DNA from: Rhynchobatus australiae
Taxonomy: Eukaryota
Length of the DNA stretch: 64,000 nucleotides
Direction: 5' to 3'
NCBI GenBank assembly: GCA_034780895.1
Contig: JAUZTB010000077.1
Location: 85,782-149,781, forward strand
Part shown: piece after piece, positions 3,555-58,380 of the stretch
Position numbering within the stretch: position 1 is the stretch's first letter
How the letters are laid out: each line of letters starts with the position of its first letter
Translations under genes and position numbers: made by a program
Notes under the pieces: generated by a model
Databases searched by the model: none
What the model was told of the DNA's origin: nothing
What the model saw: the letters and a program-made list of their open reading frames with translations, nothing else

Positions 3555-4453
3555 TTATCTACACAGCAGCCCATTTAATGTAAATAAATATTTCACTCCA
3601 TTCTGCAGTTCCTTCCTGAATTTCCTCTGTGTCAGTATATAGATACATGTGTTGGTACACATACTGAGCATCTGCAACATATATCCGAACTGTTCCAGAA
3701 TATATGTTGGGGTATTCAAATATTTGTCTGTGTAAGAATAGTTTTGTGCTTGCCATCTCATCGAAGACACCACATAGGGTATCCAAAATAAAACAAAATT
3801 GGCGGATATAGCGAACAACAAAATCATTGACTTCCTCCGCATCTCCACCTCCTCATCCTTTTGTTTCTCGCTGTTGTTACGAAGTCCTTTGCGGACTTTA
3901 TTTGCCGCTATGATATGCCTGACTGTTATCCCATTGAATAATAGAATAAAACAGATTGGTAAGAGCGGTGTTAAGATACTCTCAAATAGCTCGTATCCTT
4001 TCCACGCCGATGAAGTAAGGTTTTCATCCGTAAAGACGCAAAGCCATGGCACGTTGTCTATGATGACTTCAGGTTCCAATGCGAAGTACAACGGGGTACA
4101 TCTCGCGCAGCTCACTACAACCACCGTCACTGTAACCACAGTCGCTGTTCTCTCGGTGCAGTATCGCTCCCGTAGCTTTTGACAACAGATTACGATAAAC
4201 CGATCGAAAGTGAAACACACAGTTAGCCAAACAGAACAGTCCCTGGTTACAATCCTCAGTACGTTAGTCAGAGCGCAAATTGGAGTAATCAGTAAGAACT
4301 TAGCATAAATATAGATATAATTGGTCTGTTCCACTAATGCAACAACGAGAACCACCATTAGATCTGCTGCTGCCATTCCCACCAGATACCGGGTAGTGGA
4401 TTTGGACAGTCCTCCTTTTGCCCGGGAGACGATGACAATCGCCGTGAAATTAA
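3555..4453 (-). CDS. GPCR gene A, exon 2: class A 7TM receptor, GPR139/GPR142-like (apparently intact, 322 aa when spliced)
   Basis: Open frame with 7TM pattern: N-x-x-AIVI (TM1), YLVGMAAADL (TM2), SVWLTVCFTFDRF (TM3), LLFN (TM5), KSMILLFAISANFVLFWIP (TM6), CTNTCIY (TM7). Acceptor ttctttgcAG at 4454-4455. 70+899 nt = 323 codons including stop. Confidence 0.9.
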
Positions 4454-5408
4454 CTGCAAAGAACAAAAGCAAAGGTTATTATCATTCCGCGTTTCACTTG
4501 AAAAATCCGCTAGAACTTGCCGCATAGTCCCGTTCCTCTGAGCCTACGATGCTATTGGCCGGCTTGGATCTTATAGAGGAAGTACAGTCCGTCCACACTA
4601 CATCTGGAGGACAGCGGTGGACCGGAGTGATTATTGCGTCAGCATTCTTCAGCAGTTTTCGATGGAGGATTTGAAATCCACAATGTTCTTACTGGTTAGT
4701 GGTTTATCCACTCAGTCTTCAAACTGGTGTTCATCAATGGAGCTGAAAATGCTGAAGGGAACATTGACAGTGGTGATAAAATGGACACAGGGAAGAAGTT
4801 TGATTAAACACGGTATATTAAAGAAGTGGAACCAGAGATGTCAAATCAAAACTGGTAAAAGAACGCCCACGGGGAAACCAAGAGTTTTTTTCACGTTATT
4901 GTTGACATTTAATAGACACTTAGATGATGTGTTCTCAATTGGTTCTCAGTTGCGGATTTATGTGAGGAAAGACCGGCGTGTCGAACACAAAGTAGAAAGT
5001 CGATTGAAAGCTGTCAAGTTGTTGTTGTAAAATTCCAAGTGAACCATAGAACCATAGAACAACACAGCACAATCCAGGCCCTTCGGCTCACCATGTTGTA
5101 TCTTCTTTCCGAATTCAGACTCCGACACAGAACGAAACATGCCTGAAATCTTTAGGGAAGTCCAACAGGTAAAATGTTGGAACCATGTCAATATCAGCAC
5201 CAACGTAATTAACACAAGAATCGGATGTTAAACAGATCAAAATACGCTAAAAATAGAAATCAATCAGCTGCTTGAAGCCTCTTCATTCTGAAAACTCTCG
5301 CCAGGTGAGGGAACATCTACCCTGGGTATCAAGACGACTATTCTACAGCGCAGCGAATCCAACAAAACACGGGACACGCAGATATGGCAGGCAAGTCCAT
5401 TATCTTAC

Positions 5409-5478
5409 CTGGGATACCAATAGCTGCAAGTGCAGGATAGAAAATGCTCGCTATGTAGTAAATTGTTGCATATCCCAT
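5409..5478 (-). CDS. GPCR gene A, exon 1 (MGYATIYYIASIFYPALAAIGIP, phase 1)
   Basis: Read by hand: ATG at 5478, 70 bp, donor G|GTAAGA. Joins exon 2 in frame to give GIPVN. Same structure in paralogs. Confidence 0.88.
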
Positions 5479-5539
5479 TTTTATGAGAAGCAGGGGTCCG
5501 TTGTGCCGAACGTCCCAGCTGCCCGTGTTCTGGTGATTT

Positions 5540-5700
5540 GTTCAACAAACTCTTATATTAGAGATGTTAATTCCACCGAGACAATTAGTGTGACCATCTC
5601 CTCAGTCTCATCAGCTACAATCCACGGAACAAACACTTAGAGAAAATTAATTTTTACTCATTGTATCTTTGTGTAATGAATTTGCTTCCTCAAGGGATAT
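5540..5700 (-). promoter_or_regulatory. Conserved proximal promoter block of gene A
   Basis: Minus strand: TATAAGAG ~75 nt upstream of ATG, CTAATTG, GAGTAAAAAT, TCCCTTGAGG. Alignable with upstream regions at ~9940-10100, ~22450-22600 and ~58225-58380. Confidence 0.6.
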
Positions 5701-7559
5701 ATATGGTAACCTTTTTCGAAGGAAAATATTGCAAGTTCAATTTCTATGACGTGATGTTTAGGCTGTTAAATTGAACAGCAGATCGGTATTATTTATAACG
5801 TGGACATTCAACTTGAAATATGCATCATTCGTAACACTATGCGGAGGACTTTGGGCCTCTTAAATTAAGAAAGGGAGTTCTGTTTGGCAGGTGAAGTGAA
5901 GTAGACGTCGACATTGAAGGGGAAGCTTCATTCCTCCCTTTGGCTTTCGGGAAGTTTTCATACTGGAAATCACAGGAACATGTCGGGACACGATGTAATA
6001 AAAACGATACTGTGTTCACTTATCCCTGAATAAATTCACAAATCCACACCTGCACTGGTGTCACCTGTGATGAACACACAGAATCATTATTCAGAAAACT
6101 GGACATGTGGAAGACGTACAGTTAATCTAACAGAAACGAGCCGTTCGGTTACTAGCACCCGGACCTCTACAACAGAGAGACCGGACCACCTCACCTCGTT
6201 CGATTGCCGCTTTTTGCAATCTTTCTTTTTATTGTCAATTGTTAATTACGATTCTTTATGTTATTCCTCCAAGGTCCTGATAGGATCTCAATTGTTGTCA
6301 GGTCATATCCTGCCTGAACGTAGCTCAAAACAAGGATCCATATGGAGTTTCCTCCGTCGATCTCTTTCAGCACCAAATAGCCGTGGTACTGTTCCCTTAT
6401 TTACTCGAAGGTATTTTGTCTTTAAGTTGTCAACTATATGATCATCCAACCGCATTGCCAATCAACAAAACCAAGCGGCATGAAATTACAACCTTATATC
6501 GTCGCGCTCTACTTATTTGAGAAGGCCGGGGCCAGAATTAAATCTTCATGAAACCCTGCCGGGCCAGTCCTTGTTGTTTCCAGGTTACAATCCCACGTTT
6601 TTTTCACTGGTCCCCGTGTCTCATAATCATGAAACATCCCGGGCCCCTTTCCCCTTTCAATGCCCTCTCGCTTTCCTGTTCCTTACCAATCCAATTGTAT
6701 TGAAGAGGTGCGAATGTGTTCAAATTACTTCGCTCATGCGTCAGTACATTTCAATAGCATTTCCTTCTGCTAATACAGTACAACATCCCGCATCTATTGG
6801 GGAACCCGTGCTGATCTACAGCCCTCGGCATGTTGGAGAAAGTCCCACCATGGATACCACTCTTTCGGCACTCACACCGTTGAACACTTAGAATGTGAGC
6901 TGCTCTCCTCCAGACATGCATTTCCTCTTGACTCCATTTTCCTGTGAATTGATTTTATCCACAATGTGCCACTTGGTCTGATAGCGTTTCATCCTGATTC
7001 CTACTCCGCCATTCTTATTGTAACAGCTCCCTCGTTCGCCCTGACAGGACACTTGACACTCGCATTGGTTTTATTTGCTGATTTGTTTAGGATCTGCGTT
7101 TTGCTGCAAAGCAGCATTTATTACCAACCGCACATTGCTCCTGAGAATGTAATGTTTATCTTCTCTCTTGTGGCGGTGTATGAAAAGACTTAATCTGAAG
7201 AAATATGGAAGGCGGTGTGTGAATTTCACAGTGGTGCTGTTTCTCTGCTCCCACTGTCATTGTCCTTGGTGGGGGAGGTGCTGCTCGGACAAGGATTGCA
7301 CAAGGTTACGCTGCATACACTGCACCCTTGTGGGGAGTGAAATGAAAATTTGATGGTGCTCCAATCAAGCGGTCTTCCTCTTCTGGATTGTATGAAGCTT
7401 CCTATGAGTTGTTGACGAGTTTTTACCCTCGTTAGAGGGTAAAATTATATTAACCACCAGTTCTTTTCTCGTTCGAAGATGGTACGAAAAGAGGTTTTAA
7501 GTGGTTAATCACAGAGCAGTTTTCACCACAATCTCTGCCTTATGTTGTAAACCAGTTTG

Positions 7560-8420: not shown

Positions 8421-9939
8421 CCTTGGCATTTCTCGTTATAAACTGGAAGATATATTGAAATATAAGTTTGTCTATTTTCCCTATGCAGCAATTTTGAAAC
8501 ATATCAAGCGAGAATTAGATGCACCACTTATTCTAATCCCGGCACGCTAATCCCCGGCACTTCCTACCAGCGTTGCCAAGAATTCTTTCTAAGGGAAGTA
8601 CGACTGGAATTCACACATTCGTACTCTGTCCTGGATTCTCAGGCAGACTGGACAGACTTCCTGGCGCTAAATGGCAATGCCTGGGAGATTCCAGTGCAAA
8701 GCTCTACCAGCTCTAAGCTTCGCTTTTAAAACAAAATAGAACGTAGAACTTTAGTGAAGATTTAGAGTGTTTGCTGTGGTAATGTAACAGTATTGAAACT
8801 GTGAAACAGATGTGCCAATCCCCACAAAGCAAAGAATAACTTGGTTGTACATGAAATTCAAATGTGTCAATTGTTTTCGTGGTTACAGGGTAAGGTTCCG
8901 AGTTGTTCCATGCTGATGAGACAGAGCGACTGGAGGACGCAAATGCAGGAAGCAGCAAAGAATGGCCTGGAATTGGATCACAGTGATGTAATCAGTGCCT
9001 GGGACTTCGCACGCAAAATGTTTATCTGACAGAAATTCTGGAAGACAATTGGTAGGATTGTCACATGGTGCAATACGTACCGGCGATCCCAGTGTTTCCT
9101 GGAAATATAATATAGCCGTAGAATTTACCACACACAAGGACAGGTCAAGCATCACGTTTTTCTGTTTTGCTTTGGCGATGATCAATGCAGTTGAATTAAA
9201 TGCAAGGCACCTTAAAGCAAATAAGAACAATATCTCCAACAGCGTAAGAACCCATGGATAGATCACCTTTTTAACCAACATCGTGTTTCAGACAGGATGG
9301 GAATTAACAAAATCTGTGGTAAACTCAGAGCCTCGTGAAATCTGCAAAAAATAACAGTGCTTAATATCTTAAAATAAAACAAATATAAGAGACAGCATCA
9401 AATGTCATTGCTGTGATGTGAGATGGTCGGGTATTTCCGTGTGTAAGGTCCGGGTGCATCAGCTCTCTGCTGGAACGTGTCGATATTCCACCTGTCCATG
9501 TGCTCCAGGTAGTTTCTGGAAACAGACTGCTTTAACTCTTCACGGATAGCCGCCGTATTGATGTGGATGTGACGATGTCCTTCGAGCAACATAAATTAAG
9601 TAATAGTTTGTCAAGTTATTTCTCATCCGCTGTGACTATTACTTGCCACAGTAAACCCAACTGAAGGCAAAATGGAGGTGTGAATCTTCCCGTTCCAGGA
9701 AAAGGTTCACTTAATTTAATTGTCAAACTAAATTGAGAAGCCTTTCTGCTGGGTCTGCTGTTACAAACGATACTTATTCCAAATGATGAATGATGCAGTC
9801 CACTATACAAAAATATTGAGCCAAAGAATTGTTTCATTTGAAGTAGCTCAAAGTTTGTGTGACAGCGAAGAAGTGTGCAACATTCTCCTTTGAAAATGAT
9901 TAAAAAAAGAGTAATGTTTAAACGAATTGTTTCTGTAAT

Positions 9940-10100
9940 TTCCTCGAGCAGCGAAATTCATTGCACGGTGAAATAATGCATGAAAATAGTTTACTTGTAG
10001 TGTTTGTTCGGTTGGATACGCCTAATGTGACTGAGGAGGCGGTCATAATAATTGGCTCAGTGAACTTTCCATCTCCTGCACAAGAGCTTTCAAACCAATC
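9940..10100 (+). promoter_or_regulatory. Decayed promoter block of pseudogene B
   Basis: gaaaatagt...gtgtttgttc...atgtgactgaggag...TAATTGG, homologous to the other paralog promoters. TATA position reads GCACAAGAG. Confidence 0.5.
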
Positions 10101-10159
10101 ACCAGTACATATGGGTACTAGGAGCATATTGATCAGCTTATTATTGCTTCACACGGAAA

Positions 10160-10229
10160 ATGGGATATTTAGCAATTTAATACAGAGAAAGGATTTTTTA
10201 TCCTGTATTGGAAGCCATTGGTATCCCTG
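10160..10229 (+). pseudogene. GPCR pseudogene B, exon 1 (MGYLAI*YRERIFYPVLEAIGIP)
   Basis: 70-bp exon homologous to the other exon 1s, donor G|GTAAAT, in-frame TAA at codon 7. Confidence 0.88.
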
Positions 10230-11172: not shown

Positions 11173-11410
11173 TTAATTTAATAGCGATTGTTATACTGTC
11201 TCGGTAAAAGTACGGACTCTCCAAATGCAGTATGCGTTACCTGGTGGGAGAGGCAACATCAGATTTCATTGACATTATCTTTGCTGTTGGACTTGGGCAG
11301 ATTAATAATATTTATATTTATGCCCCTGCTTTGGTCATTACTCCGATTTTCAATGTGGCACGTCCTGAGGCTCGCAACTCTGGACTTTTCTGTTTGGGTT
11401 ACGGTGTCAT
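11173..11410 (+). pseudogene. GPCR pseudogene B, truncated exon 2 (TM1-TM3)
   Basis: NLIAIVILSR*KYGLSKCSMRYLVGEATSD...QINNIYIYA, then frameshift to VLRLATLDFSVWVTV. Acceptor reads TG instead of AG. Homology stops at the ERV LTR edge. Confidence 0.85.
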
Positions 11411-11996
11411 TCCGAAATTCATTTACCCTTCTGTCCGCCGCAAGAAACACAGTGCCACGAGGTCTAGTCGAACTCATGGCACTGTGTTTTATTTAGCAGC
11501 ACTGCTAGGAGAGTCCCTTCAGCACTCACTCAGAGTCGCTTCCCAAGGTATCTTCCCGAGCAGCGGGTCAGACAGAAATTCATACAGCTTTTCTCACACA
11601 ATCGCCATACAGCAGGCGCCGTGAGTTTCGGGCCATCTGTACAAATGTTAAAAACAGCAATCTGATTCCTTGTCCAGCATAAACAGTTGCAATCAGGAAA
11701 TACAAAGGTGGGTATCACCCCTCATTGTTCAATTTGAGCTTCCCCTGCAATGTTAATCTCATTGCCGTCTGTTCCCACCCTGGTGTTAATTTCACCCATT
11801 ACTGCTGTCTGTTACAATGTTAATTTCACTGACTACTGTTAGCTCAGTGTGTTTCAATACCTGGACAAAGGCAATTAACATACTTTGAGTTCCAACCCAG
11901 CCAGTGTCCCTGCCAGTTTAGTTTTGGGAGAAGTGTGTCTGTCTTTTTTTGATAGTTATGAAGATGACTGCAATTGTTTAACCCTTTAATTCTAAA
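11405..11996 (-). mobile_element. 3' LTR of endogenous retrovirus (boundaries approximate)
   Basis: Minus strand: purine tract AAAATGGAGGGAA just upstream (~11997-12009), U3 with repeated TGTTAAT motifs, AATAAA ~11490, R-region hairpin, terminal ...GAATGACA. Confidence 0.6.
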
Positions 11997-12009
11997 TTCC
12001 CTCCATTTT

Positions 12010-13369
12010 ATCATTAAATGATAAACCAGAGTGGGACTGAGAACGGGGCTGTGAGTCTGCTGATCAGGACATTGCAACAAGTATTCAGACAGGTCAATAC
12101 CACACAGAACACTATCACCATAACGATTAGCCCCGCTGCTCCTTGTAACAGGACCACGACCCCCTAGCAGCCATCCCCACCATTCCGTCCCTCCTTGAAA
12201 TCGCTGTCTGAAGCTTTCTACCTGCTTCTGAATATCCTGAATGGCATGGGAGTTGTTGTAGGACTCAAACTCTTACATTAGTGATGCACTTCCCCCTACT
12301 ATGGCGCACACTCCCCCTTTCTGGGCCAGCTGGTAGTCCACAGCATACCGGGTCTGATGGGCATACAGTCGGAGCTCTGCCGCTTCCTGGTTTACTTACG
12401 TCAGGGCCTTCACAGTGCTGTTTCCCAGTGCGGCCAGTCCGCAGATAAGGTAGTTCCGGTTCTTCGCAGTTATGGTTCCTGTCGAACCCCTCAGAGAGAG
12501 AGTACTCAGGAATCCAAAGCCCAACGACGCTAAGGGGAACCCCAAGGACATGGGATACCTCCACTCATCACAGAACTCCTCACCAACTGACCACACCACA
12601 AGCCTCCATCGGACATGAGCCCTCTGCGGGCAGGGGACTGTGACTGGCCCAATCATTCCCATCGCAAAACAGGCTGGCAGAGTGGGGGTGGCAGTGGTGT
12701 ATGTGCCGTTAACGAGGATCACATACTCTTCCTTGGCCCCGTTGCAAGTTACCCGACCCGGCTGCCGTGGACTGGGCACTGGGGAGTACCAAGAGATTCC
12801 TGCAAAATCTTTCCCACACTCCCGTAGGTAATTCTCCCTGGTGAGCCATTCTAAAGAGACATTAGACACTCTTACATGGGTCCCGTTCCCTTCCCCACAA
12901 ACCCATCGCTCTCCCGCAAGTAACGCAACACACCTAGTGGCAGCGCACTCACACCTAAACCATCTGCCCTTAAACCTGCAGTCCCTCTCTGTGCAAGTAG
13001 TGGTGGCACATGCAGTACAATCGCTATCCCGCAACCCCATCCTTTGCCGGTGAAGCAGCGGGAGAAGGACGGGTGGTGGGTTCTACTACTAGGACCTGTT
13101 ACTGTTCCTAGCAAGCATTTACCCTGTAGCACCCTCCTGTAAGTTCCTGTCTGCCCAACACACTTTGCTTTTGAGAATTCATACTTTAAGAGGGCCCTGG
13201 GGCTCCAGCTTGGGGTGGCTACAAAAAGACCGTCCACTGACTCTGCCAAGGGGTAACAGACAGTGCGATTCCCATGTAACTACGGATGTACTTTGTAAAA
13301 CAAATTATCCTCTATTGCCCGCATGAAGTCAATAACAACTGTGAGAAGTCTGTTTTTGATAAGTATCAT
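12010..13369 (-). mobile_element. env: Degenerate ERV env (SU + TM)
   Basis: ATG overlaps the pol stop (ATGA). MILIK...NLFYKVHP*LHGNRTVCYP; fusion-peptide-like LGFPLASLGFGFLSTL; heptad NYLICGLAALGNSTVKAL; ISD-like LYAHQTRYAVDYQLAQKGGVCAIVG.KCI; WWGWL then hydrophobic anchor. Contains stops and frameshifts. Confidence 0.8.
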
Positions 13370-14250
13370 CTTCCCCCAGGTGGCCACCGTTTACAGTCAC
13401 TTAGGTGAATCCAGCGTTCCTGGCCTTTCACTTTCACCGCTGTCGGGGTCTGGAGTAGTATGTGGAAGGGCCCTTTCCACCGAGGACCTAGTTTAGGGAG
13501 CTCCCAATCTCCTACCAGCACCGAGTCCCCAATTTCCAGGTCAGGCAGATCCGCGCTCTGTTCTCCAGTTGGCTTGAAGGCTCTCTCCACCTGTGAATGA
13601 AGGAACTTTAAAGAAGATGTAAGTTGCCTGAAATACTTCTGTACCTCGTCCCCCATGACATTAAGGTCCACCTGTGTGGGGGGCTGAGTGTCAACGTCCC
13701 ATGGGGTTCTTCCTGGATGCCCATAGACCATTTCAGCAGCTGATATCCCAGTGGCCGAGTGGGGGGTGATTCTCATGTGGTATAATGCCAAAGGGAGAAC
13801 CTTTAGCCAGTTCAGCCCCGTCTCTGATGTTAGTTTGTTCTTAAGGGTGCCGTTAGCTCTCTCTACTATCCCTGCTGCATGAGGGTGGTGGGTGCAGTGG
13901 AACCGCTGCTCGATATGCAGTGCCTCACACAATTCTTTGTTTATTTTTCCTATGAAGTGGGGGTCATTGTAGGAACTTATTTTTTGTGGCACTCCGAACC
14001 TGGGTATGATTTCCGTGAGCAATAGCTTTACTACTGTTGAGGCCTTATTGTTAGTGGTCGGGAAGGCTCCAATCCACCTGCTAAATATGTCGACAATAAC
14101 GAGACAGCACTTGTAACAATTTACACGTGGTAATTCAATAAAGTCAAGTTGTATACATTCGAAAGGACCTTCTGGCAAGGGAGTTTTGCCTGGGGTACAC
14201 CTCACCCCTTTCCCAGTGTTGGTTTGTTGACATATCAAGCATGACCGTAT
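13366..14250 (-). mobile_element. pol: ERV pol integrase (class I, gamma/epsilon-like), cut off by assembly gap
   Basis: GPFECIQLDFIELP, LVIVDIFSRW, EIIPRFGVP, AAGIVERANGTLK, GPRWKGPFHILLQTPTAVKV..WIHLSDCK. Confidence 0.92.
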
Positions 14251-14904
14251 TTTNNNNNNNNNNNNNNNNNNNNNNNNNNNNNNNNNNNNNNNNNNNNNNN
14301 NNNNNNNNNNNNNNNNNNNNNNNNNNNNNNNNNNNNNNNNNNNNNNNNNNNNNCCTATACAAATCCCTTCATTTATGCAGGAACTCAGAAAAAAAAATCA
14401 GAGAGGAATTAAAGAGTGGGGCAAAATATCCACTGAATCTAATTGTTATTTTAACTAAATTCTACTAACTTCCCTCTATTTACTCGCCTCGTAATGAATA
14501 AGTACAATTGATTTGGATGCTGTCTTCATTTCCAGACATGCAGTGAATCAATTTAACGTCTTCCGCTTTCCGTAAATTCACAGCTAGAGGACGAACACGG
14601 AACATGCAACGCGGGGACCTGATTATTTAAAGGATAAAGTCACCGTGGCTGATTTCCGAATGACATATCCCATGCCTCTTGCCCCACATAGAAGAATAGA
14701 AGTTGAGGCAAGTGTTGAACACTCAGCCACTCGAACCCTATCCGTCAGGCAGCACAATGATTGATATCATTGTAAGCACCATATCTCCGTCTTCCCGTGC
14801 TCGCATGCGCCCGTTGCTCATCGATCATCCATCGAGCTGCATCTTCGTTGTTTTAAATACTATTCATTCACAGTTAATTCAAGGAGAACCTCTAGCGATA
14901 AACA

Positions 14905-22661: not shown

Positions 22662-22731
22662 ATGGGATATCCAGCAATTTACAATGTCGTCAGAATTTAT
22701 TATCCCGTACTAGCCGCGGTCGGTATTGCTG
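22662..22731 (+). pseudogene. GPCR gene C, exon 1 (MGYPAIYNVVRIYYPVLAAVGIA); exon itself intact
   Basis: 70 bp, ATG at 22662, donor G|GTAAGG. Confidence 0.85.
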
Positions 22732-23750: not shown

Positions 23751-24771
23751 TTAATTCAACGGCGATTGTCATCCTGACCCGCGGAAACTGTGGGCTGTCC
23801 AAATGCGTCTCTCGGTACCTGGTGCCATGGCGGCAGCAGATCTGATGGTGGTTGTCGCTGGTGTTGTATTGGAACAGATCACACTTATCTATTTATTTGC
23901 TCCTTTCTTATTCACAACTCCTGTATGTTCTGTGATTCTTGTCCTGAGTGTCGCAACCATGGACTGTTCCGTTTGGTTGACGGTCGCTTTCACATTCGAT
24001 CGCTACATCGTCATCTGCTGTCAAAACCTACGGAAACGATATTGTACGGAGAGATTAGCGACGGTGGTGGTGGGGACAGTTTGTGCAGTGATTTATGGCA
24101 AGTCCATTCCTTGTTACTTTCAAGTAGATCCATCGCGCTGCGTCCCAAAAGCTGAATACTTTACTTCGCCTTTGTGGAGAGCCTTCGAGTTATTTGACAC
24201 CATCCTGACNNNNNNNNNNNNNNNNNNNNNNNNNNNNNNNNNNNNNNNNNNNNNNNNNNNNNNNNNNNNNNNNNNNNNNNNNNNNNNNNNNNNNNNNNNN
24301 NNNNNNNNNAATTCGCCTTTGTGGAGAGCCTTCGTGTTATTTGACACCATCCTGACTAAGATATTACCAATTTGTTTAATTTTGCTGTTCAATACGTTAA
24401 CTGTCAGACATATTATAGCAGCAAACAGAGTCCGCCAAGGACTCCGGAACAGCAGCGAGAATCAGAAGGACCTAGAGGTGGAGTGCCGGAGAAAGTCAAT
24501 GATTTTGTTGTTCGCTCTATCAGCAAATTTTATTTTACTATGGATGCCCATTGTTGTATATTCTATTAACTGGCAAGCTGAAAACTATTCCTACACAGAC
24601 AGATATTTCAGCACGCCGAAATATATCCTACAGCAGTGCGGGTATATGCTGGAGTTCCTCAGTACCTGCACCAACACGTGTATATATGGACTGACACAGA
24701 GGAAATTCAGGGAGGAGCTGAAGAATGGAGTGAAATATCTGTTTACCTTAAATGGAAGGTTCTGCAAATAA
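23751..24771 (+). pseudogene. GPCR gene C, exon 2: GPR139/142-like, one 1-bp frameshift (young pseudogene or assembly error)
   Basis: Acceptor ttttacccAG. Reads NSTAIVILTRGNCGLSKCVSRYLV, then GTG-CCATG (one G missing, ~23824). Remainder is open with DRY and CTNTCIY. The internal 100-N gap is flanked by a ~45-bp duplicated overlap. Confidence 0.8.
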
Positions 24772-29763: not shown

Positions 29764-29833
29764 ATGCACGGGCCAGCGCGTGGGTTGGTGTTTGCCATTT
29801 ATTATCCCTTACTTGCAATCATTGGGTTACCGT
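29764..29833 (+). CDS. GPCR gene D, exon 1 (MHGPARGLVFAIYYPLLAIIGLP, phase 1)
   Basis: 70 bp, AAAATG start, donor T|GTAAGT. In frame with the exon at 32815. Confidence 0.82.
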
Positions 29834-32814: not shown

Positions 32815-33728
32815 CAAACTTGGCAGCAGTTGTGATACTATCCCGAGGAAAGTGTGGTCTCTCCAAGTGCGTCACCTATTATCTGGTGGGAATGGCGGTG
32901 ATGGATCTTCTCGTCATCGTCACCGCCGTGATACTGAATCGAATAACCGGTATCTATTTCGTGAACAGTTTGCTCTCCACCACTCCCGGCTGCAGTCTCA
33001 GCACGGTGCTAATTTACACAAGCAGAGATTGCTCGGTGTGGATAACGGTCGCATTCACGTTGGACCGTTTGGTTGCAATTTGTTGCCAGGAGCTGAAGCG
33101 AAGATATTGCACAGAGAAAACCTCGACTGTGGTTCTAGCTGTTGTCTGTGTCCTGAGCGGTATGAAGAACGTTCCCTTTTACTTCGTGTACCGTCCGTTG
33201 TATGTGGTCAACGGCGTGCCCTGGTTTTGTGACTATAAATCAAGCTTCTTCACTGAACCTGTCTGGAAAGCGTATGATTGGCTGGACCACATTGTAACAC
33301 CGTGTATTCCTTTCCTTCTGATCCTACTGTTCAATGTTCTGACCATCAGACATATTTTCCTGTCCAGCAGAGTCCGCAGGGGACTTCGGTGTAACAGGCA
33401 GGGGGGTGAGTATCGCAGAGATCCAGAAATGGAAAACAGAAAAAAATCCATCATTTTACTTTTCACCATCTCCGCCAGTTTTATGCTCTTGTGGATAACG
33501 TGTGTTTCTAATTTTGTCTACATTCGAATTAAAGGCAGTTCTTATTTCACGGGTTTCACTTTCAAAGATCCACATTACGTTCTGCAAGAAAGCGGCCACA
33601 TGCTTTCCACAATGAGTTTCTGCACGAACTCCTTTATTTACGCAGTGACCCAAACAAACTTCAGAGAAGAGTTGAAGAAGGCGGTGAAGTGGCCCATAAC
33701 TCTGATAGTTAATTGCTTTAATCGGTAA
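32815..33728 (+). CDS. GPCR gene D, exon 2: GPR139/142-like, divergent subfamily (apparently intact, 327 aa when spliced)
   Basis: Acceptor ttaacAG. NLAAVVILSRGKCGLSKCVTYYLVGMA, TLDRL, VPWFC, RKKSIILLF, CTNSFIY. 70+914 nt = 328 codons including stop. Confidence 0.9.
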
Positions 33729-38610: not shown

Positions 38611-40050
38611 ACTCACTGTGCTGAAGAAAATAGTTTTAAAACAGAACTCGTAGAAGTGTACGCTGTTCAACTAAGCGCAGGTCTTGCACCCCTTTGTGTT
38701 GCTCCTGGCAACGGCAGATGGACGTGGATTAAAAAAAAACCTCGACCACGACTAAAATTTGATGTAAAATCTGTTTTACCAATACAAGGAACATAATATT
38801 TCTCGATAGCCGAACACGATGCTCTCTCGTCCCTGTTGTACTTTACGAAGAGCCCGCGCCGACATTTAATACCGTAGGTTCTCTGTTATGGTCCTGAAAA
38901 TCATTCACGTTTCTACTCCAAATTTCTCCTCATAAATGGCACTCACCTTTTAAAACACAGACGAAACGCATTCCTTTTGCATGACCAGTATTTCCTGTCA
39001 CATGACATCCCTTTTGCACGTGGTTTAATCAGTGGACAAAACAGAATATTGATTGCTCAATTCAAACCCACTTGTAAACATGTTGCTCTCTTCAGCAAAA
39101 TACGACAATCCCATCCTCACCAGCTGGTTTGTTTTCATCAGAACTGCAGGGAGTGCAGCATGATCACACGTGGACATTCTATTTGAATTTATTTCCGTTT
39201 ACATCCAGTCCGCTTGATTGACAGTTGACTCCGTTGAAAACGTTCACTTGGCCTCGGAGCGTCAACATAACTGCAAATTGCAAAAGAGAAAACAGTGATG
39301 AGGTCAAAGAAAGTTCAACACCATACCAGAGTTCACTGACGATCAGCGAAAAGCATGGAAGTCGCCCCCCCCCCATAATTACCAAAGAAACATGCAGACG
39401 TATGACCGGCATTCCAGAATATTAAGGGCGACATGTTATTTAAGGATTTTAAGGGCGTCAGTCTTATTAAGGACGACCCGTGGTTCAATGGGCAATCCTC
39501 AACTGAAGACCTCACATCACTCACAGGCCGGTATACTGGAACCCTTGATGCTTCACTGTTCCGGAACACAGGGGCTTATCTACCCGGCACAGAAATGTTG
39601 CTGTGAGCAATATAGAAGCCGTTAAATCGACAATTATTTTAGCCCCGTCAACATCAAATGCTGCAAATATGAAATGATAAAAAATTGCAAAAACAATTTT
39701 GGATTAGACGGCAATTTATTTTTATTTTTGGTAAACCAGTAATGCTTCTTCAGTATGAAGAAGGCATTGGTCAGTCGTTTGTTTATTGAGATACGATGTT
39801 CCCGTTTAAATTCTCACTTCTGTGTTCTTTTTTTTATGAACCCCAGTGGAATGTAATCGCATGATATTTGGTCATTAATCCTGCAGTGAAAAATAACAAT
39901 TAAATCGCTATTACCTCATCTGCTAAATCAGTTCCCCGTATTCAAACTAATCAATATGCTCTCGGATCTGGAAACAACAGTCTGCTCAACAACAAATGAA
40001 ACGGACTTCCGACAAGTTGTTTCAAGGATCAACGATTCGGGTTTTTTATT

Positions 40051-40924
40051 TCATTTACAGAGCTTTCCATTTAATGTAAACACATATTTCACTCCATTCT
40101 CCACCTCCTCCCTAAACTTCCTCTGTGTCAGTCCATAGATACACGTGTTCTTGCAGGTACAGAGAAACTGCAAAATATACCCAAACTGTTGTAAGATATA
40201 TCTCGGCGTGCTGAAGTATCTGTCTGGGTAGGAGTAGTTTTCCGGCTGCCAATTCAGAGTGAATACAAAATAGGGTATCCACAATAAAATGAAATTGGCT
40301 GAGAGAACGAACAGCAAAATCATTGACTTTCTCCGGCTCTCCACCTCTGGATCTCTCTTATTCTAGCTGCTGTTACGAAGTCCCCGGCGGACTCGATTTG
40401 CCGCTATAATGTGTCTAACTTTTAAAGTATTGAACAGCAGAATTAAACTACTGGTAAAACCGGAGTTAAGAAACTGTCACATAACTTGTGGATTCTCCAC
40501 ACGGGTGACGTTAAGTATGCGGTTGTGGCAACGCAGCGCCTTGGATCCACTGCAAAGTAAAAGGGAATAGCCCCAGCACAGCTCCCTGCACACACCATCA
40601 CTGTTACCACGGTTGCTATTCTCTCCGTGCAATAGCGGTTCCGCAGCTTCTGACAGCAGATGGCAACGTAACGATGGAAAGTGAAAACAATCGTCAACCA
40701 AACGGAACACTCTGCGATTGCAACCCGCAGGACAAGTATCACAGCACGCACCGGAGTTCTCAACAAGAAAGTTGCAAATAGATGGATCAAATTAATTTGC
40801 TCCATTGTCACAGCGACGATAACCACCATCAGATCTGTTGCCGCCATGGCCACCAGGTAGCGGGTGATGCATTTTGAGAGACCACATATTCCGCGGGACA
40901 GGATTACAATCGCTAATAAATTAA
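40051..40924 (-). pseudogene. GPCR pseudogene E, exon 2
   Basis: Acceptor tttgcAG. DRY changed to HRY, 1-bp deletion ~40447 in TM5, nonsense TAG at 40363-40365. No matching exon 1 found upstream. Confidence 0.88.
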
Positions 40925-44900: not shown

Positions 44901-46404
44901 GCTATAACAAGGCTCGAGGAAATATCTGGCTTGAGTAAATTTCCAGCCTTTCAGGGCTTCCTGTCGAATTGAATAACTTCAGGTAACGTCACTCACATTT
45001 TCTGTGATATTGACTCAGTTTCTTACTCTTCACTCGCACGGACCGGCAGGTTGGCCATTTCGTACGGTGCCACAGTTGACTGTTTCACACATGTTTTTCT
45101 TGTCATAGAGTCATCGAGATATCGACTGATACAATGGAGTATCAAGCCATGCGGACCACTAACTAACTATTCATATTATTTTCACCTACCAACACTTATT
45201 CCACAGGATTCTATTCCTTAGCGGTTCAGTTGCTTGTCTGGATACTTGTGATAAATTGTGAGAGCCTTCGTCTTCACGACACACTGGTGTAGTCGTTACC
45301 AGATTCCAAACATACCCACCTTCAAAATCCTCAGATCTCCCCTGTTTTCCGTGAACCTCAGTATAAAGTTATGTCCTCCTAGCATATCCGGGCTCACATA
45401 TTTTTTTCTGTATCTGCCAAGTTCACTTAGCCTCCCCAGTTCCAATGTTTGAGTGCAAGACAACGTTTTTCTGAAGGAGCAATCTGTCTTGGGAATGTAC
45501 AAAATGTAAGAATGTTGCGTGGTACGATGGACACAAAAGGATGATTGTCGAGTATGGGTTCTGATCGTTTCAGGTAACCGGAGGGGATCAAATCAGAGTT
45601 TTAAAATCAAAGAGGATATGTACATCATCAACTGCGACGAACAGAGAGGTTACTCCGGAAATGTTAGCAACTCCAGCAAAACCACATCATGAGTACTCTG
45701 TACACTTCGGGTCACAATATTGCTAAAATGACGAGGTTGTTCCGGAGGTTTGCAAAGAAAATTACTGAGAATGTTGAAAGAATTTGTTTGGGAAACAAGA
45801 ATAAATAAAAACAGACAACCAAGATTAATTGTGTCATCCAGAAGTTTTTGCAATAAGGAGCGCTGGAAACAGAGTGAAATCTGAAGGACAAGGTTCCTTC
45901 AACGGAGTAACAAAAATAAAACGTAGAAAGTAATTTAATGTCATTGGTAGCAGGAGTAGAAGGAAGAGGAGGGTTCAGTTTATAACTAGACGATCGCAGG
46001 GGTCCGCACTCGCTGCGTGAATGGGTGTTGGATGAGAACCCCTGGACAACTCAGCCGATACTTGGAATCGTTACTCGAAAAGTTCTGACTTGCGGTGCTG
46101 CAGACCATGCGCTTGGAAGTGCAGTCAGGCTTGGTATTCGTTCAGCACAGGCAGGGCGGTTATGGACTGATGTTATATCTCTGTAATGCATCTTCGTCCA
46201 CGATTCTCTGAGGAAAGCCGATGTAAAGCTACTGGAAACAGACATTGTGCCCGGAAACCTGCTAATCATCAATGTTTGCGTTCCTACTGAACCAGTTTTG
46301 GATCTAATCTACCGCTCACATTAAAAAAAAACAGAGTACGAAGTCGTTAAGGGATTTGTATGAATTGTATTGATGGAGTTTACACAACTCCATTGAGAGT
46401 TGAA

Positions 46405-47296
46405 CTCATTTAATAATTCACTCCAGCGGGTATTTAACCGCGTTCTTCAGGTCCTCGCGGAATTTTCTGTGGGTCACGGCGTAAGTACACGTGTTGCTTC
46501 AGGAATTGAGAGCTTGCAGCATGTATCCCGTTTCATCCGCGATGAAACGAGGGTCACGGAAAGAAGCGTATCGGCGGACGTTAGGAATTCGACCATAAAT
46601 GTTGCACCGAACCCGCGTCACCTAGAATACCATGAAACTGCCGATTAAACTGAAGAGTAAAACGATAGATTGCCTCCGCTTTGCCATCACCGGGTCCTTG
46701 TCATTCTCTCCATTGCTGCGGTCCTGGAGCCCCCTGCGGACTCTACTGGCTGCTGAAATCCTTCTTAATATCGAGAATATTGAGCAGTAAAAATCAAAAC
46801 AAATGGGAAACAAGGGATTAAAATGACATTAAGCTCTTCGAGTGCTGCCCATGCGGGAGAAGTGAAAAGCGGTCTTGAGGAGAATAGCTCCATGGAATAT
46901 TGGCAATGATGTATTCAAATTCAAGTATGAAAAAGCAGGGGACACTCTCTGAACATCCCACCACATTCACTTTCCCGATAACCACAGCCGCCGTTCTCCC
47001 GGTGCAATATGTTGTTTTCAGTTTCTCACAATATCTGGCCACAAATTGATGAAAGGTGAAAGCGACTGTCAGCCAGACAGAGACCGCAGTTCTGGCACTG
47101 TCCAGGACTGCAATGAGACGACATACTGGAGTGATGCGCAGGGATGGAAGGGAGAAATTAATCAAACCAATCCAAGTCAATACAAGAATTGATAGAACGA
47201 CCAGGAGATCGAATGCTGCCAGTCCCACCAGGTAGCGAGTGATGCATTTGGAAAGGCTGCACTTTCCTTGGGCAATCATAATTGCCGCCAATTTCA
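46405..47296 (-). pseudogene. GPCR pseudogene F, exon 2 (divergent subfamily)
   Basis: KLAAIMIAQGKCSLSKCITRYLVGLAAFDL, FTFHQF, several frameshifts in 46760-46880, stops in TM6 (TAG) and TM7 (TGA), then NTCTYAVTHRKFREDLK. Confidence 0.88.
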
Positions 47297-49984: not shown

Positions 49985-50054
49985 CGGGAATTCCAACGGC
50001 TGAAATAACAGGATAGTAAACGTCTTCTATTCGGTATATTACTGGATATCCCAT
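49985..50054 (-). pseudogene. GPCR pseudogene F, exon 1 (MGYPVIYRIEDVYYPVISAVGIP)
   Basis: 70 bp, donor G|GTAAAC. The nearest downstream exon 2 on this strand is F. Confidence 0.82.
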
Positions 50055-50629
50055 TTCAGTGTGAGAAGCTGTGTAAATGTAAGTGCCGGACAAGGGCTTC
50101 TCAAGTTCAGAAAGAGGATTTCGTTCGCAGCTACATGAGGTAAACCTTTTTCTTGCTGAGGGTGTATTCACGACCCCCTTTTGCCTTCAGCTAGGTTTCG
50201 TGCGGTAAGTTATAAGCACAGCTGATGAAAAATAACTTAATAAACGGTTACTGTATTTATGTATTTCGAAGGACATTATCACATCCACACGGATCTGGGG
50301 CCATCTGTGAAGACTGCAAAAACTCTGCTTCTTAAAACTACACGGAGCATGTGCACAAATTGAGTATCAACACTTCCCAGCACGGAAACGCACCGGAAGA
50401 CCTGCAGTGCCCATAACTGTCCCACTGAATGATACGACCTTCTCAACTCGCAGCATTGATACTTGGTACCGTCTCTAGTATTTGTGTTATTCCTTGTGCT
50501 GTTCGGGCCTTCGGAGCAGGTTAGTATTTTCTTATTAGGGGTTTTATTATAAGGGTTAGTTTCTATATGTTTCTTTTTTAAGTGTTTTATAAGTTTTAAT
50601 CGGGAATACTGGGGGCTAGACAACGCAGG

Positions 50630-52860: not shown

Positions 52861-55597
52861 TGGTGTTGAACATAAAAGAGTACAGGAAAGGATCAAGTCC
52901 CTCTGCCCACGATGTCTGTGCCATCATGATGCCAAATAAAATCAAATCAATGGACATGAGCCATATCACTTCAATGTTTTCATGTTCCTGTCTGTCTAAA
53001 TGCCTTTTGAACGCGACTAACATATTCGCTCCACCAGAACATCTAGAAGAGCCTTCCAGTCACGTACCACTTTCGGGGGAAATAACTTACCGGCTCATCT
53101 TCCTTCAACTTTCCCCTTCTCACAAAGCTATGTCTCTACTATTTGACATTTCTACCCTGAGAAAAGTTATAAAGACCCACTGCTGATACTTCATAAAGTT
53201 TCACAGATCAGCACGATTTCATTAAATGGTTGAACAAGCTTAAGTAACCAGTATCGAAAATACAGAATTGAGGTTACAATCAGATAAGAGTACAATGCTA
53301 ACACCTGCCAGAGGGGCGCAGTGGCTAACTCCTGCTCTTAATTGGTATATTCACAGACAACACTTCCAGCTGAGTGCAGACCACTGCGAGAATTCCAACC
53401 AAGAGAATAGATCAGCTGCTCCCTTCCCCGGCCCATCAGTATGGAGCCACATCCGGGTCTCACTCATCAGATTCCTCTCGATAAAATCGGGCAATACTTC
53501 TTCGACAGCACTGTCCGGCTCTCCGCCCTTCTTCTAAAGTAAATTCTCACTTCATAAATCGATACTCCGGTTCAGGCAAGGCCATATATTTTAAGACAAT
53601 TTATCTGGTTGAAAGCAGAGCTCAAGTCAATGCCTCGGTTTCCGTCGTGACTCACGCATGAAATTTTTAAAAAAGCACTCAGATTCAGTAATTCTGTGAT
53701 TTTGCTTCTTTTACTGTCAGTGGTTTAGTCACAAAATCAAAGAGTCATAATCACAGAAATAGGGACTTCTGCCCAACTCGTCCATGTCGACCACGGTGAC
53801 TGTTGGAGATGGTACCATTTGCCAGTTTGGGGCCATGTCCCTATAAACCTTTCCAATACATGTACCTGTCCAAATGATTTTTAACGTTTTAATTCATTCA
53901 CATGTCTCCCACTTTTTTACAGTTAACTTGTAGGCTATTGTTATGTGGTCCCGAGGAGACTGCATTTTCTCCAAGTAAATGACTTGACCTCGTGGTCAAG
54001 ATAATGTTGGATCTCCTCGGCATCATCACTGATCAGTTATTTTCACGGATTACTAAAATATATTACCCAGGATCATTCCCAGTGTAATATCTCCTTTACC
54101 TCGTGATTTAACCAGTCACTGAGGCTTTTGTCTGCTTTGCAGTTACTTTAAGCAGAGTTCACTTTTTCATTGAGATTCAACCGCATAAATAATACCACAG
54201 TACTTTAATTTGCCTTCGGAGAGGCAAGATACCAATCGACTGTTACTGTAAGGCAAAGGATCACCTTTGATTAAAATATGGTTTTTACTTTCGATTCCCA
54301 TGATATATTTTAATGCGTGTTCTCAGTTTTAATGTGATGAATCAATTTTAAATTTTGTTCTCCGGACACATTTCCCCGAATACCCTCGAACATTCTCAGA
54401 GGCGGAGATAAGGATTCCAACATATCAGCTGGCTTTCCTTCACCTAAATCTTTTCACAATGAAGGCCAGCATGCCTTCAACATTTATACTTTCTCGCTGA
54501 ACCAAATGCTGCATTCGTGAGTTTTGAGTACAAGGCACTGATCTTCCTCAGAGCACCAAGACTTTACAATCGCTCACCACTGGAATGAAATAGCGACTCT
54601 AAAGTGGCCAAAGTATATTCCACATTGCACACTCGCATCCCGTATGTAATACTGATATCCCTCTGCATATTTGATGTGACAACCATCCAGCCCGCTCCCC
54701 TGATTCAAGTCACCGATACAGATTATGCAAAACTGGTTCGCAACACCGAACGCTGAATAGGCTATCGAACCCACGAATCTCCCATTTATTCCCGTTTTGG
54801 GCGGGTGTCTCTCTGTAGAATCGGTAAGTGCGTTCAGTTGTTAACTGGAAGGTTGGTTGTTCGGCCCAACCATTGACGCTGTGTGTATAATTTTCATTTA
54901 AATAACATTGTACTCTCCGAGTCGGGTGCTCACTGCTGGTTTAGTTTAAGTGATGTTATGAAGCCTGAAAAAGCGACGCAGGCCGAAATTCCTGGCCACG
55001 ATCCGACAAGCGATAAACTTCAATGACGGAAAGTTGACGGAAAGTATCGTATTCTCCACTCTAAAGGATGTATTCATATTCCAGTTGGGCATTGCTTTGC
55101 AGGTGAGAGAGACACTCCGTATTTCAAGCATACTCAAAAGGCTAGCAGGCACTTCAAATAAGACCAATTTCCGGATGAACCACGATTTTATTTTGTTACT
55201 TTTGTATTCTTTATTTCTGTTTAGGTCGCAATTTTCCTTGATGAAAAGGTCATCAGTGAACCATTTAAGATAAAGCCCATGGAAATGCTTAAGGTTGTGG
55301 CTCGCATTTACTGACACAAATTTTAGATTTCTTACATATATTTCTACATCTGCAACAATGAAAGTTAACCTCACGTTTTACCGTTCAATAATCCTGTGGT
55401 GTAAACCTGGGAAATTAATAGTTATGTCGATGGTGTTGAACTCTCTGAAGTCGTTTTCGTATTAAATCAAATCAAAGAGAAAGTAAGAGCTGAGAACGGA
55501 AAGCACCTGATTATCAAGAACCTGCCCACAGGATGACAGTTTATTGTTTTCCTCATTTTAATGCAAATCTCAATTAGGTTACAATCGAATATACATT

Positions 55598-56464
55598 TTA
55601 TTTGCAGAGCTTCCCATTTAGCGTAAATAGGTTTTCCACTTCATCTTTCAGTTCCTCTCTGAATTTCCTCTGTGTCAGCCCATAGATATGGGTGCAGGTA
55701 CTGAGCATCTGCAACATGTATCCGATCTGTTGCAGGATATATATGGGTGTGCTGTAATATCTGTCTGTGTAGGAGTAGTTTTCAGTTTGCCAGGTCATTG
55801 CATGTACGACATAGGGCATCCACAGTACTACGAAATTGGCTGATAGGGCGAACAACAAAACCATTGACTTTCTCCGGTTCTCCACCTCTGGATCTTTCTC
55901 ACTCTCGCTGCTGTTCCGAAGACCCCGGCGGACTCTGTTTGTCGCTATAATCCGTCTAACGGTTAAAGCATTGAACAGCAGAATTAAACCGATTGGTACC
56001 ACCGGTGTTGTGAAACTGTAAAATAACCTGTACCCTCTCCACACCGATGACGATAAGTATTCTGCTGCGGCGACGCAGCGTCGTGGATCCACTGTAAAGT
56101 AAAACGGAATAGACTTGGCACAGCCCGCTGCACCCAATATTACAGTTACCACAGTCGCTGTTCTCTCGGTGTAATATCGTTTCTGCCGCTTGTGACAGCA
56201 GATGGCTGCGTATCGGTCGAAGGTAAAAGCAACCGTCAACGAAACGGAACAGTCCGTGGTTGTGATCCGTAGGAAATGTATCACCGTGCACACCGGAGTT
56301 CTGAGCAAGAAATTAGCAAACATAAAGATAAAATTAATCCGTTGCAGCAGAACAGCAAGGAAAACCACCATTAAATCCGCTGCCGCCATCGCCACCAGGT
56401 AGCGAGTGATACATTTGGAGAGACCGCATTTTCCGCGGGATAGGATCACAATCGCAGTTGTTAA
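55598..56464 (-). pseudogene. GPCR gene G, exon 2: open frame but splice acceptor destroyed (probable pseudogene)
   Basis: Full TM1-TM7 ORF with DRY, but the acceptor region reads ttctttgTTAACAACTGCG with no AG. TM7 CTNTCIY is reduced to CTHIY. Confidence 0.75.
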
Positions 56465-58107
56465 CAAAGAAAGGATATCGTAAGCAGTTAGTTGGTATCG
56501 TTCCCAAATTGGGTAGTATGACTTCATTTCTATGGTCAGAGGTCGAGCCCGGTTCTGCCACAGTCTGAGATCCCCGCCAATATGAAGATTCATGTCTGCT
56601 GGCCGAAATTTGAAGCCGGTCACCGATCAACTTGAAACTGCACCATGATGTGCATCCGAGAACCCGTCATTTTCACTCCATGAAGCGAACCAAACTGGAT
56701 AATCTGGAAGCCGAACTTTGCCTCGAATAAAATCAGGGCGCTCTCGGGGTACCCTGACAGGTGGTGAACGACGGGCCGGAAACATTTGCATCTGGCCGCG
56801 AATGTGAGGATCGCAGTCGCTGTTGTTTTAATGGGCGGGGCGACCTTTGGGGAACGACACATGCAGTGGAGTGGTTGGTCTTCATTTCACATTGCTTGAC
56901 GTAGCTCTCCTGCTTTAATTTCACTTACTTCAGTTTGGTGACTTTCGAAATGATTATCTTTGAAAATCACATTTTAAAAAATCTAAATGGTTTTAAACCT
57001 CATCAGAAAGCAATTTGTGGACGACGGAGAAGTCAAAATCTCAGGATTATCGGTGACTGGGACTCATCATCCGTATAAAGTGAATCGTCACTATTTGACT
57101 GCTCCTGCTCACGGAAAATCGAGGAGTCCCAGGCGCGGGAAGCCCAGGATGGGAAAGAAAACAAGTTAATTAATGTTTGATTGGGCTGATCGTGATTTTC
57201 AATAATCACGAAGTACCCGATTAAAGTGGTCATGTTTGTCGATGGAACACCAAATGTCCGATAGCAAGGTAACACAGAATCCAAAATGAAGTACTTCGGA
57301 ATGACGGTTAAATTGTTTCATAATCTTAAGGTAGGTTAAAGACATGATTAATTTATTTTGCTATGTATTTCTTCTAACTCTGACCGACATGCTAACTTTT
57401 GTGTATTCCACCAGACAAAGGAATTCAGTAATCGCTTTTTATCCTTGCACCGTAATGACACAGTCCTGCGTGGAGACAGTAGGAAAATGGTTTTGCACGG
57501 GAAAACACCAGAGAAAATGAACTTCATTGAACTGTAGATACCAAATAAGATGGTGATAGTTTGGGGCCCAAGCGAGCGCTGCCATGAATCGCCCTCCTGC
57601 ATTCTCTACAACCATTCACGGTATGTGGGCACAAATGTTCTGGTATTGCCCAACTCCATAGCTGGGTAGCGCTGCGCAGAATGGACCCAGCAGTGACCTG
57701 TACTCAGCTGCAAAACCACCCATCAACGCTTGACAGTCTTTTAAGTGTGTAATGTGGGTGAGGAATCTGCAGACTGTTATTAATGTAAGGAAACCCAAAT
57801 ATTCTGGTGTTTGACGGCCTTCATAACAGCATTGGATCCATATGATAGATAGAAATTAATAACAAATTGACATATTTAAATGCATTGACAATTTCATTCA
57901 AAGCCCCTTGTCAAATCACACCATTAAAGTAACGTTAATTACATCGTAACAATTAAGTGAAAATAATTTATTTCCCTCACTATGCCTACTGAATATCATG
58001 ATTCAATGGACGGAGGACTTGGAGCATTATGCACGAGTAATCTACGGTATATCAAGTGTAATGCAAAGACGGAGACATATAAATAGCTGTCAGGTCCAGC
58101 ACCTTAC

Positions 58108-58172
58108 CAGGAATACCGACCGCTGCAAGTACAGGAAAGTAAATGCTCGCAATAAATTGTTGGATATCCCAT
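58108..58172 (-). pseudogene. GPCR gene G, exon 1 with 5-bp frameshifting deletion
   Basis: 65 bp instead of 70: MGYPTI-(deletion)-IASIYFPVLAAVGIP, donor G|GTAAGG. Confidence 0.85.
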
Positions 58173-58224
58173 TTTCTTCCCGAAGAAGTGATCATTTGAT
58201 CTACAAACTGCTCACAAACACTAG

Positions 58225-58380
58225 TTCAAGGAGCTCTTATACATCAGATGGAACTTCCATTAAGCCAATCAGTGCTCTCCTCAGTCACATTATCGACAAA
58301 CCACTGAAAAAAACACCTAGTGGGGACTATTTTTACTCATTGTGTCAGTGTACAATATGTTTAACTCTTTGAGGGACATG
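58225..58380 (-). promoter_or_regulatory. Conserved promoter block of gene G
   Basis: Minus strand: TCCCTCAAAGAG, GAGTAAAAAT, CTGATTGG, GTATAAGAG. Confidence 0.6.

Follow-up and report, generated by a model that had tools for sequence, protein, structure and literature searches.

What does a tandem cluster of GPR139-like receptor genes do in an elasmobranch genome, and how did it arise? We addressed this question for a 64,000-nucleotide stretch of the Rhynchobatus australiae genome (GenBank assembly GCA_034780895.1, contig JAUZTB010000077.1, forward-strand positions 85,782 to 149,781; hereafter "the window"), which is eukaryotic, has a GC content of ~42%, and includes 11 gaps of N. An earlier note, made from the sequence letters without database searches, had described seven paralogous G-protein-coupled receptors (GPCRs) here and proposed an uncharacterised, expanded family of sensory or immune function. 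Our analyses place these genes in a clustered multigene family with birth-and-death turnover, as is typical of chemosensory repertoires. Our leading but tentative explanation is a chemosensory repertoire whose members would recognise varied ligands from outside the body.

A multigene receptor family in elasmobranchs

Searches by tblastn with the two long open reading frames (ORFs), combined with profile scans, recovered seven class A GPCR loci in the window and reproduced the positions and mixed orientation first described (A-, B+, C+, D+, E-, F-, G-). As had also been noted, two genes (A and D) are intact and five (B, C, E, F, and G) are broken by stops, frameshifts, or lost acceptors. Profile scans and nhmmer added two remnants, H and I, the latter outside the 3555..58380 span of the earlier note, bringing the count to two intact and seven dead loci out of nine. 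Gene A consists of a 70-nt first exon (5409..5478, - strand) with an ATG and a phase-1 GT donor, and an intact second exon running from the second half of transmembrane helix 1 (TM1) to the stop codon (3555..4453, -; tblastn, Pfam, and splicing), which are joined across a 955-nt GT-AG intron into an intact 322-aa product. Gene D, with both exons intact (29764..29833 and 32815..33728, +), yields an intact 327-aa product across a GT-AG intron of 2981 nt that includes a 986-N gap. The two-exon structure, thought to be shared by all paralogs, was recovered in six of the seven, with no exon 1 found for gene E. The first exon is 70 nt long and ends in a phase-1 GT donor in A, B, C, D, and F, is 65 nt long in G, and the coding intron is placed inside TM1. 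Genes A and D both combine a 7tm_1 domain with the D2.50, C3.25, DRx, P5.50, W6.48, and NxxxY motifs of class A receptors. Near-full-length ORFs of A, C, D, and G passed the Pfam 7tm_1 cut-off (E 1.6e-16 to 1.7e-25), a fragment of E fell right at that cut-off, and a fragment of F had no Pfam match. An AlphaFold model of D exon 2 (pLDDT 92.7) is a helical bundle with a hairpin in the second extracellular loop (ECL2), as in peptide receptors. Foldseek matches to this model were peptide receptors at a TM-score of ~0.7, with GPR139 only at rank 25, so that the structure search does not single out GPR139 and adds information on the fold only.

Of 4252 candidates, 1818 proteins matched gene D exon 2 at E<=0.001, and relatives from outside the family may be counted among these. 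The best 120 matches comprise 117 named elasmobranch proteins from 17 genera and three unnamed ones, and no chimaera occurs among the named rows. By our own tally, 39 of these 120 come from Heterodontus (horn shark; 10 scaffolds of different length, with 26 on one) and 18 from Heptranchias, copy counts that are lower bounds because they cover just the 120 nearest clusters at 90% identity. Most of the 120 are named "probable GPR139", with a few labeled GPR15-, galanin-, capa-, or sex-peptide-receptor-like. The proteins are short (~325 aa): 24 residues precede N1.50 in 82 of the 86 full-length named proteins, and none of the 86 has an N-terminal sequon. A search of 50%-identity representatives returned 107 proteins at E<=1e-30, and three Atlas clusters, with 82, 154, and 190 members, have likewise been named GPR139 automatically. 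This database spread, together with the clusters and the phylogeny below, bears out the proposal of a distinct birth-and-death family automatically named "probable GPR139".

A phylogeny of 49 rows hand-picked from 412 proteins (LG+G4, 326 columns) recovered the elasmobranch family as a single clade (support 97/97). Its sister (98/88) is an apparently single-copy gene represented by a newt protein (P0223); the search with this protein found one relative per genus in 20 amphibian genera, 66-100% identical to the query, plus a single sturgeon protein. A second, conserved GPR139-like gene, represented by a coelacanth protein (P0234) and also present in sharks, bony fishes, amphibians, and reptiles, forms a group (100/99) outside the family and its sister. 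A quick tree of 83 rows agrees, with weaker support for the family (80). The alternative grouping of the family with the conserved GPR139-like gene, apart from the amphibian gene, was rejected (p-AU 0.026 in the approximately unbiased test under LG+G4, with long outgroup branches). A maximum-likelihood tree including GPR139 and GPR142 had been suggested at the outset; ours recovers the distinct family clade, has long outgroup branches, and lacks true GPR139 and GPR142 sequences, GPR139 motifs being present in none of the 412 fetched proteins. Tandem duplication built the array itself: a single local clade (100/99) unites A, C, E, and G, with F falling elsewhere, and B and remnant I share the promoter of this group. 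In the tree, proteins of skates and stingrays join gene D in one group (100/100), which shark relatives adjoin; the host is therefore probably a batoid, and the D subfamily arose before sharks and rays separated.

The family is plainly visible in the annotation of the National Center for Biotechnology Information, and what is new is its recognition as a distinct repertoire. The literature we searched, with some supplements unread and listings partly covered, held no description of this family, in keeping with the view that it is uncharacterised. The available part of a vertebrate GPCR survey that leaves out sharks mentions additional subtypes of GPR139/142 in fishes and in coelacanth (PMC6504862). 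The word "gpr" is absent from the main text of a catshark sensory study (PMC11979771), its supplement being unread. The accessible text of the Squalomix preprint on tandem clusters names Pcdh, V2R, SUCNR1, and others, its single "gpr" word being GPR91, although figure labels and supplements may include the family. Across 24 whale-shark supplementary files, GPR139 did not occur and GPR142 appeared in one orthogroup line.

Relationship to GPR139 and known chemoreceptor families

GPR139 (PDB 7VUG/9M42) is the nearest solved relative, shares the class A 7TM fold with the family, and is the source of its database name. It also has two exons, according to the portion of a GPR139 study available to us (PMC7318219). 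Orthology to GPR139 was nonetheless rejected on bit scores and pocket residues. The family profile scores 97.9 bits against GPR139, and gene D scores 39.6 bits against human GPR139 versus 134 and 112 bits against the other GPR139-like clades. The same study puts human-zebrafish identity of GPR139 at 70%. Activation of GPR139 is reported to need F109, H187, W241, and N271 (PMC5430874, in part), and R244 to touch a synthetic agonist (PMC8807744, in part). In our alignments, the F109/H187/W241/R244/N271 equivalents are Y/D/W/C/H in D and I/E/W/Y/Y in A, leaving W6.48 as the only key pocket residue identical in both, and F/Q/W/K/N in all 20 amphibian proteins. The family further differs from GPR139 in being multi-copy rather than single-copy, and in having C3.25 and an ECL2 cysteine, whereas GPR139 lacks C3.25 in the alignment. 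The analogy with the aromatic amino-acid ligands (Trp and Phe) of GPR139, on which the earlier note had drawn, is thereby weakened, the amphibian sister having a far more GPR139-like set of residues. Judging from these residues, the ancestral pocket survives largely intact in the single-copy sister, and the family has remodelled it.

The amphibian/sturgeon gene is 34% identical to D and similar in length and loop motifs, shows no expansion, and has a nearly invariant pocket (F3.33, Q5.42, W6.48, K6.51, N7.39). In this group, N2.50 and S1.50 replace the usual D and N. The gene itself appears to be unnamed, and may correspond to one of the GPR139/142 subtypes of fish and coelacanth, GPR210A/B, named in the accessible part of PMC6504862. 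The conserved GPR139-like gene of the next clade out is 31% identical to D and bears the same automatic name, has a conserved pocket, and includes shark proteins of its own (Scyliorhinus, Stegostoma, and Pristiophorus) that fall outside the expanded family. Some entries of this group are misnamed TMEM183A. P6.50 and P7.50 are near-universal in class A receptors; these positions are mostly T, V, or M in both the family and the conserved GPR139-like gene, and A, C, E, and G keep P6.50.

Membership in established chemoreceptor families was also considered and rejected. All 73 aligned proteins matched 7tm_1; 7tm_4 matched weakly in three of these 73 (best E 5.7e-5), and V1R and TAS2R in none, against membership in the olfactory receptor (OR), V1R, or T2R families. 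TAARs are defined by D3.32; at this position gene D has I, gene A has R, and the family as a whole varies, on which grounds TAAR membership was rejected; no aminergic receptor was among the best 60 of 156 solved-structure matches. The family resembles the OR, TAAR, V1R/ORA, T2R, and FPR/MRGPR arrays in its tandem clusters, many pseudogenes, and short N-terminus, as well as in its variable pocket and conserved G-protein face, but is not descended from them, and a coding intron inside TM1 also sets it apart.

Sequence variation and candidate functions

We compared the entropy of the pocket, of other extracellular TM positions, and of intracellular TM positions, the pocket being a list of 32 generic class A positions rather than one derived from the D model. 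Family representatives (52 kept at 90% coverage from the first 74 of 150 listed) had entropies of 2.36, 2.06, and 1.19 bits, respectively, so that the pocket is the most variable part of the receptor across the family, above other extracellular TM positions (p 0.02). The pocket is the most conserved part in the single-copy relatives (p 0.0002 and 0.002), with entropies of 0.11/0.48/0.48 bits in the 20 proteins of the amphibian gene and 0.68/1.17/0.89 bits in 82 of 87 proteins of the conserved GPR139-like gene (33 unnamed rows dropped first). In the 117 named matches to D (hereafter D-like proteins), the values were 1.11/1.33/0.76 bits. At matched depth (65% versus 62% mean identity), pocket entropy was 1.11 bits in the family and 0.68 bits in the conserved gene (paired p 0.011). 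In the family, variability was likewise greater in outer than in inner loops (2.47 versus 1.60), a relationship reversed in amphibians (0.39 versus 0.86). The family contains subfamilies older than the shark/ray split, and across it the pocket and outer loops vary and the intracellular face is conserved. Many members carry acidic residues at 3.37, 5.39, and 5.42, a hint that ligands may be cationic.

The DNA-level comparison used pairwise ratios of nonsynonymous to synonymous substitution (dN/dS, NG86) in 15 pairs among six window genes, four of them pseudogenes. Ratios were 0.17-0.39 in all 15 pairs (0.24-0.52 in the outer half, 0.12-0.30 in the inner half, and 0.20-0.65 in the pocket), at a dS of 0.5-2.6. 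dN was higher in the outer than in the inner half in 15 of 15 pairs, by about twofold, and together with the loop entropies this upholds the earlier observation of high divergence on the extracellular side. The diversifying selection that had been predicted was not seen in these pairwise comparisons of six genes. Pseudogenes C, E, and G, compared among themselves, still show dN/dS of 0.28-0.35, indicating that they were functional for most of their history. These genes therefore record long purifying selection with uneven constraint, followed by recent inactivation.

Promoters are conserved in part of the array. The 280 nt before the ATG of A, B, C, and G align better than introns or 3' flanks in six of six pairs (for A-G, a score of 73 versus 16-21), with introns also aligning well only for A-B, and the D and F promoters did not align with those of A, B, C, and G. 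In gene A this region (5479..5760, -), also conserved with remnant I, has a TATA-like element at -79, TAATTG at -109, and an O/E-like site at -218. Genes A, C, and G each have a TATA-like element 69-79 nt upstream of the ATG. Using the O/E-like (YYYCARRRR) and homeodomain (TAATKR) consensus sequences as given in the available part of PMC5638857, we found that the O/E-like site occupies one homologous position in genes A, C, and G and that TAATKR is present in A, B, C, G, and I; in all, both sites occur in A, B, C, G, and D and neither in F, with only TAATKR in I. The window's single TTTTTAATGA lies 129-138 nt before the D ATG, and 27 of 100 shuffles hold one somewhere; the 13-mer of this motif with two mismatches is at chance level (4 observed versus 4.0 expected). 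We treat these promoter motifs as a weak, post hoc lead. A 327-nt element, 69% identical, lies upstream of both B (9373-9685) and F (50166-50491) in the same orientation relative to the gene, and is either a shared regulatory element or a repeat; the proximal promoters of B and F do not align despite it.

How might such a family have formed and functioned? Its most likely origin is repeated duplication of one GPR139-related gene, apparently kept single-copy in amphibians and sturgeon, with copies presumably gained and lost as in OR, TAAR, V1R, and T2R arrays. Each receptor would bind a different water-soluble small molecule or peptide in its orthosteric pocket, and all members may signal through one shared G protein, possibly Gq/11 by analogy with GPR139. 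Accessible sections of PMC8557429 recover GPR139/142 as the sister group of Wamide/RFamide receptors, an expanded clade in protostomes, which makes peptide or amino-acid-derived ligands the best first guess. The cells most likely to use these receptors would be chemosensory ones in contact with the environment or the gut contents, in the nose, among taste or skin cells, or in the gut. In other phyla, lineage-specific expansions of class A receptors whose pockets vary have been interpreted as chemoreceptors (PMC11886862, in part). A stronger version, in which this is an undescribed vertebrate chemoreceptor family that was drawn from the GPR139/142 branch independently of OR, TAAR, V1R, V2R, and T2R, is at least as large as the V2R set, and is sparsely expressed in shark and ray sensory cells through O/E and homeodomain-type promoters, we hold to be possible but doubtful; such a family would bridge the distance between the few receptors known and the chemosensory ability of elasmobranchs.

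Several observations weigh against a chemosensory repertoire. The pattern of diversified pocket and conserved signalling face is modest (p 0.02-0.05): among the 38 of 52 representatives with intact motifs the pocket excess reaches only p 0.05, and it is absent in the D-like subset, where the pocket does not exceed other outer positions (1.11 versus 1.33). Paralogues of any receptor family, including those with endogenous ligands, show more variable pockets than orthologues do. No pair out of 15 had dN/dS > 1 by pairwise NG86 among the six window genes, the only genes that the DNA-level comparison covers. Both promoter motifs co-occur in 13% of random 300-nt windows (background rates 0.33 and 0.38). 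Finally, catshark OR genes are reported not to be expressed in the nose (PMC11979771, main text).

The competitor that survives best, which we nevertheless judge unlikely, is an immune or irritant-sensing repertoire comparable to FPR/MRGPR, in which leukocytes, mast-like cells, or somatosensory neurons would detect microbial or parasite peptides and turnover would reflect host-pathogen pressure. Clusters, pseudogenes, a variable pocket, and a conserved inner face also fit this reading, and the predicted peptide-receptor-like fold with its ECL2 hairpin is compatible with it. Cartilaginous fishes are also described as lacking MAS1 and its relatives in the available part of PMC8455134, which would leave that role vacant. 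Pairwise tests gave no sign of positive selection, however, and GPR139 (97.9 bits) ranks ahead of chemokine receptors (69.5 bits) against the family profile, which argues against descent from immune receptors.

We consider it improbable that the family serves endogenous peptides or metabolites in brain, endocrine, or reproductive signalling and diversified with its ligands, as protostome MIP, proctolin, FMRFamide, and myosuppressin receptors did. The sister relationship of GPR139/142 to the protostome Wamide/RFamide clade (PMC8557429, in part) would agree with such a role, as would the retention of Y/F3.33 (92%) and N7.39 (65%) in D-like proteins, and relatives of gene D branch along the ray/shark split, which suggests a fixed job. 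Yet seven of nine loci are dead, A/C/E/G represent a local radiation, and receptors for fixed internal ligands usually resemble the single-copy relatives with their near-invariant pockets. Mostly neutral copy-number drift in a repeat-rich region, with few functional genes, many redundant decaying copies, and no repertoire function, is just as improbable, since the high pseudogene share, the retroelement inserts, dN/dS never above 1, and the scaling of batoid tandem arrays with genome size (accessible part of bioRxiv 10.1101/2025.06.08.657570) stand against a dS of 0.5-2.6 accumulated under dN/dS of 0.17-0.39 with constraint concentrated on the inner face, promoters conserved beyond introns, and the persistence of many deep subfamilies.

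Cartilaginous fishes have been described as GPCR-poor (PMC8455134, in part), and the main text of PMC11979771 lists for catshark two ORs, six OR-like genes, two to three each of ORA, TAAR, and TARL, and 32 canonical V2Rs. One horn shark holds at least 39 members of the present family, concealed by the label of one single-copy orphan receptor, a misnaming that affects studies counting such entries as GPR139. A sensory role would make the family one more vertebrate chemoreceptor repertoire of independent origin, and an immune role would make it a shark counterpart of FPR/MRGPR arrays.

Gene decay and mobile elements

The broken genes differ in their lesions. Gene B has a stop at codon 7 (10178) of exon 1 (10160..10229, +), and the 5' part of its exon 2 (11173..11412, +) has a TG acceptor, a stop at 11205, and frameshifts. 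It is split by a retrovirus-like insert (11413..14253, -; boundaries approximate, with the right junction within an N gap), beyond which the final ~32 codons, covering the end of TM7 and helix 8, resurface as a 3' remnant (14355..14452, +; E 3.4e-7). The insert encodes an rve integrase core and an MLVIN_C domain (MLV-type integrase C-terminal domain) at 13369-14247 by Pfam, the adjacent ORFs at 11844-13279 had no Pfam match, and a 45-nt imperfect palindrome lies within it at 11445-11489.

In gene C, exon 1 (22662..22731, +) is intact, and the sole genuine lesion is a 1-nt deletion in exon 2 (23751..24771, +), near 23824. An apparent 147-nt insertion in the same exon, made up of a 100-N gap (24210-24309) and a flanking 45-nt near-duplicate, is probably an assembly artefact. 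A 24-nt ECL2 deletion is common to C, E, and G. Exon 2 of gene E (40051..40924, -) has a 1-nt deletion near 40449, a stop at 40365, and D3.49H; neither its exon 1 nor a promoter was found, at a place with no N gap. Gene F retains an open exon 1 (49985..50054, -), and its exon 2 (46400..47296, -) carries three frameshifts, two stops, C3.25R, and HQF in place of DRY. Gene G has a 5-nt deletion in exon 1 (58108..58172, -) and, in exon 2 (55598..56464, -), a lost acceptor, a 2-nt deletion, and a 6-nt deletion in the TM7 NxxxY motif, with the remaining frame open. This frame extends over 55598-56626 (-), with in-frame upstream ATGs within the intron, such that annotation pipelines could call a single-exon gene. 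Comparably odd N-termini occur in several homologues in the databases, suggesting that database counts include some pseudogenes. Remnant H is the decayed start of an exon 2 (53880..54078, +; nhmmer E 7.5e-11). Remnant I (60729..61074, -; E 4e-36) consists of an A-type promoter and an exon-1 stub (ATG 60766) followed by unrelated sequence. The ORFs just downstream of it, at 58894-59987, look by eye like a second decayed retroelement integrase (no Pfam match) and may have displaced exon 2 of this remnant.

Elsewhere in the window, an Rfam scan gave no matches, tandem repeats amounted to four trivial rows, and a Pfam scan of 14 other ORFs gave one match. A fragment of a long terminal repeat (LTR) retrotransposon pol gene with an Integrase_H2C2 domain lies at 37853-38653 (+). 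Two young inverted repeat pairs, 19269-19381/19735-19852 (96% identical) and 34090-34178/36430-36518 (94% identical), are possibly the ends of DNA transposons.

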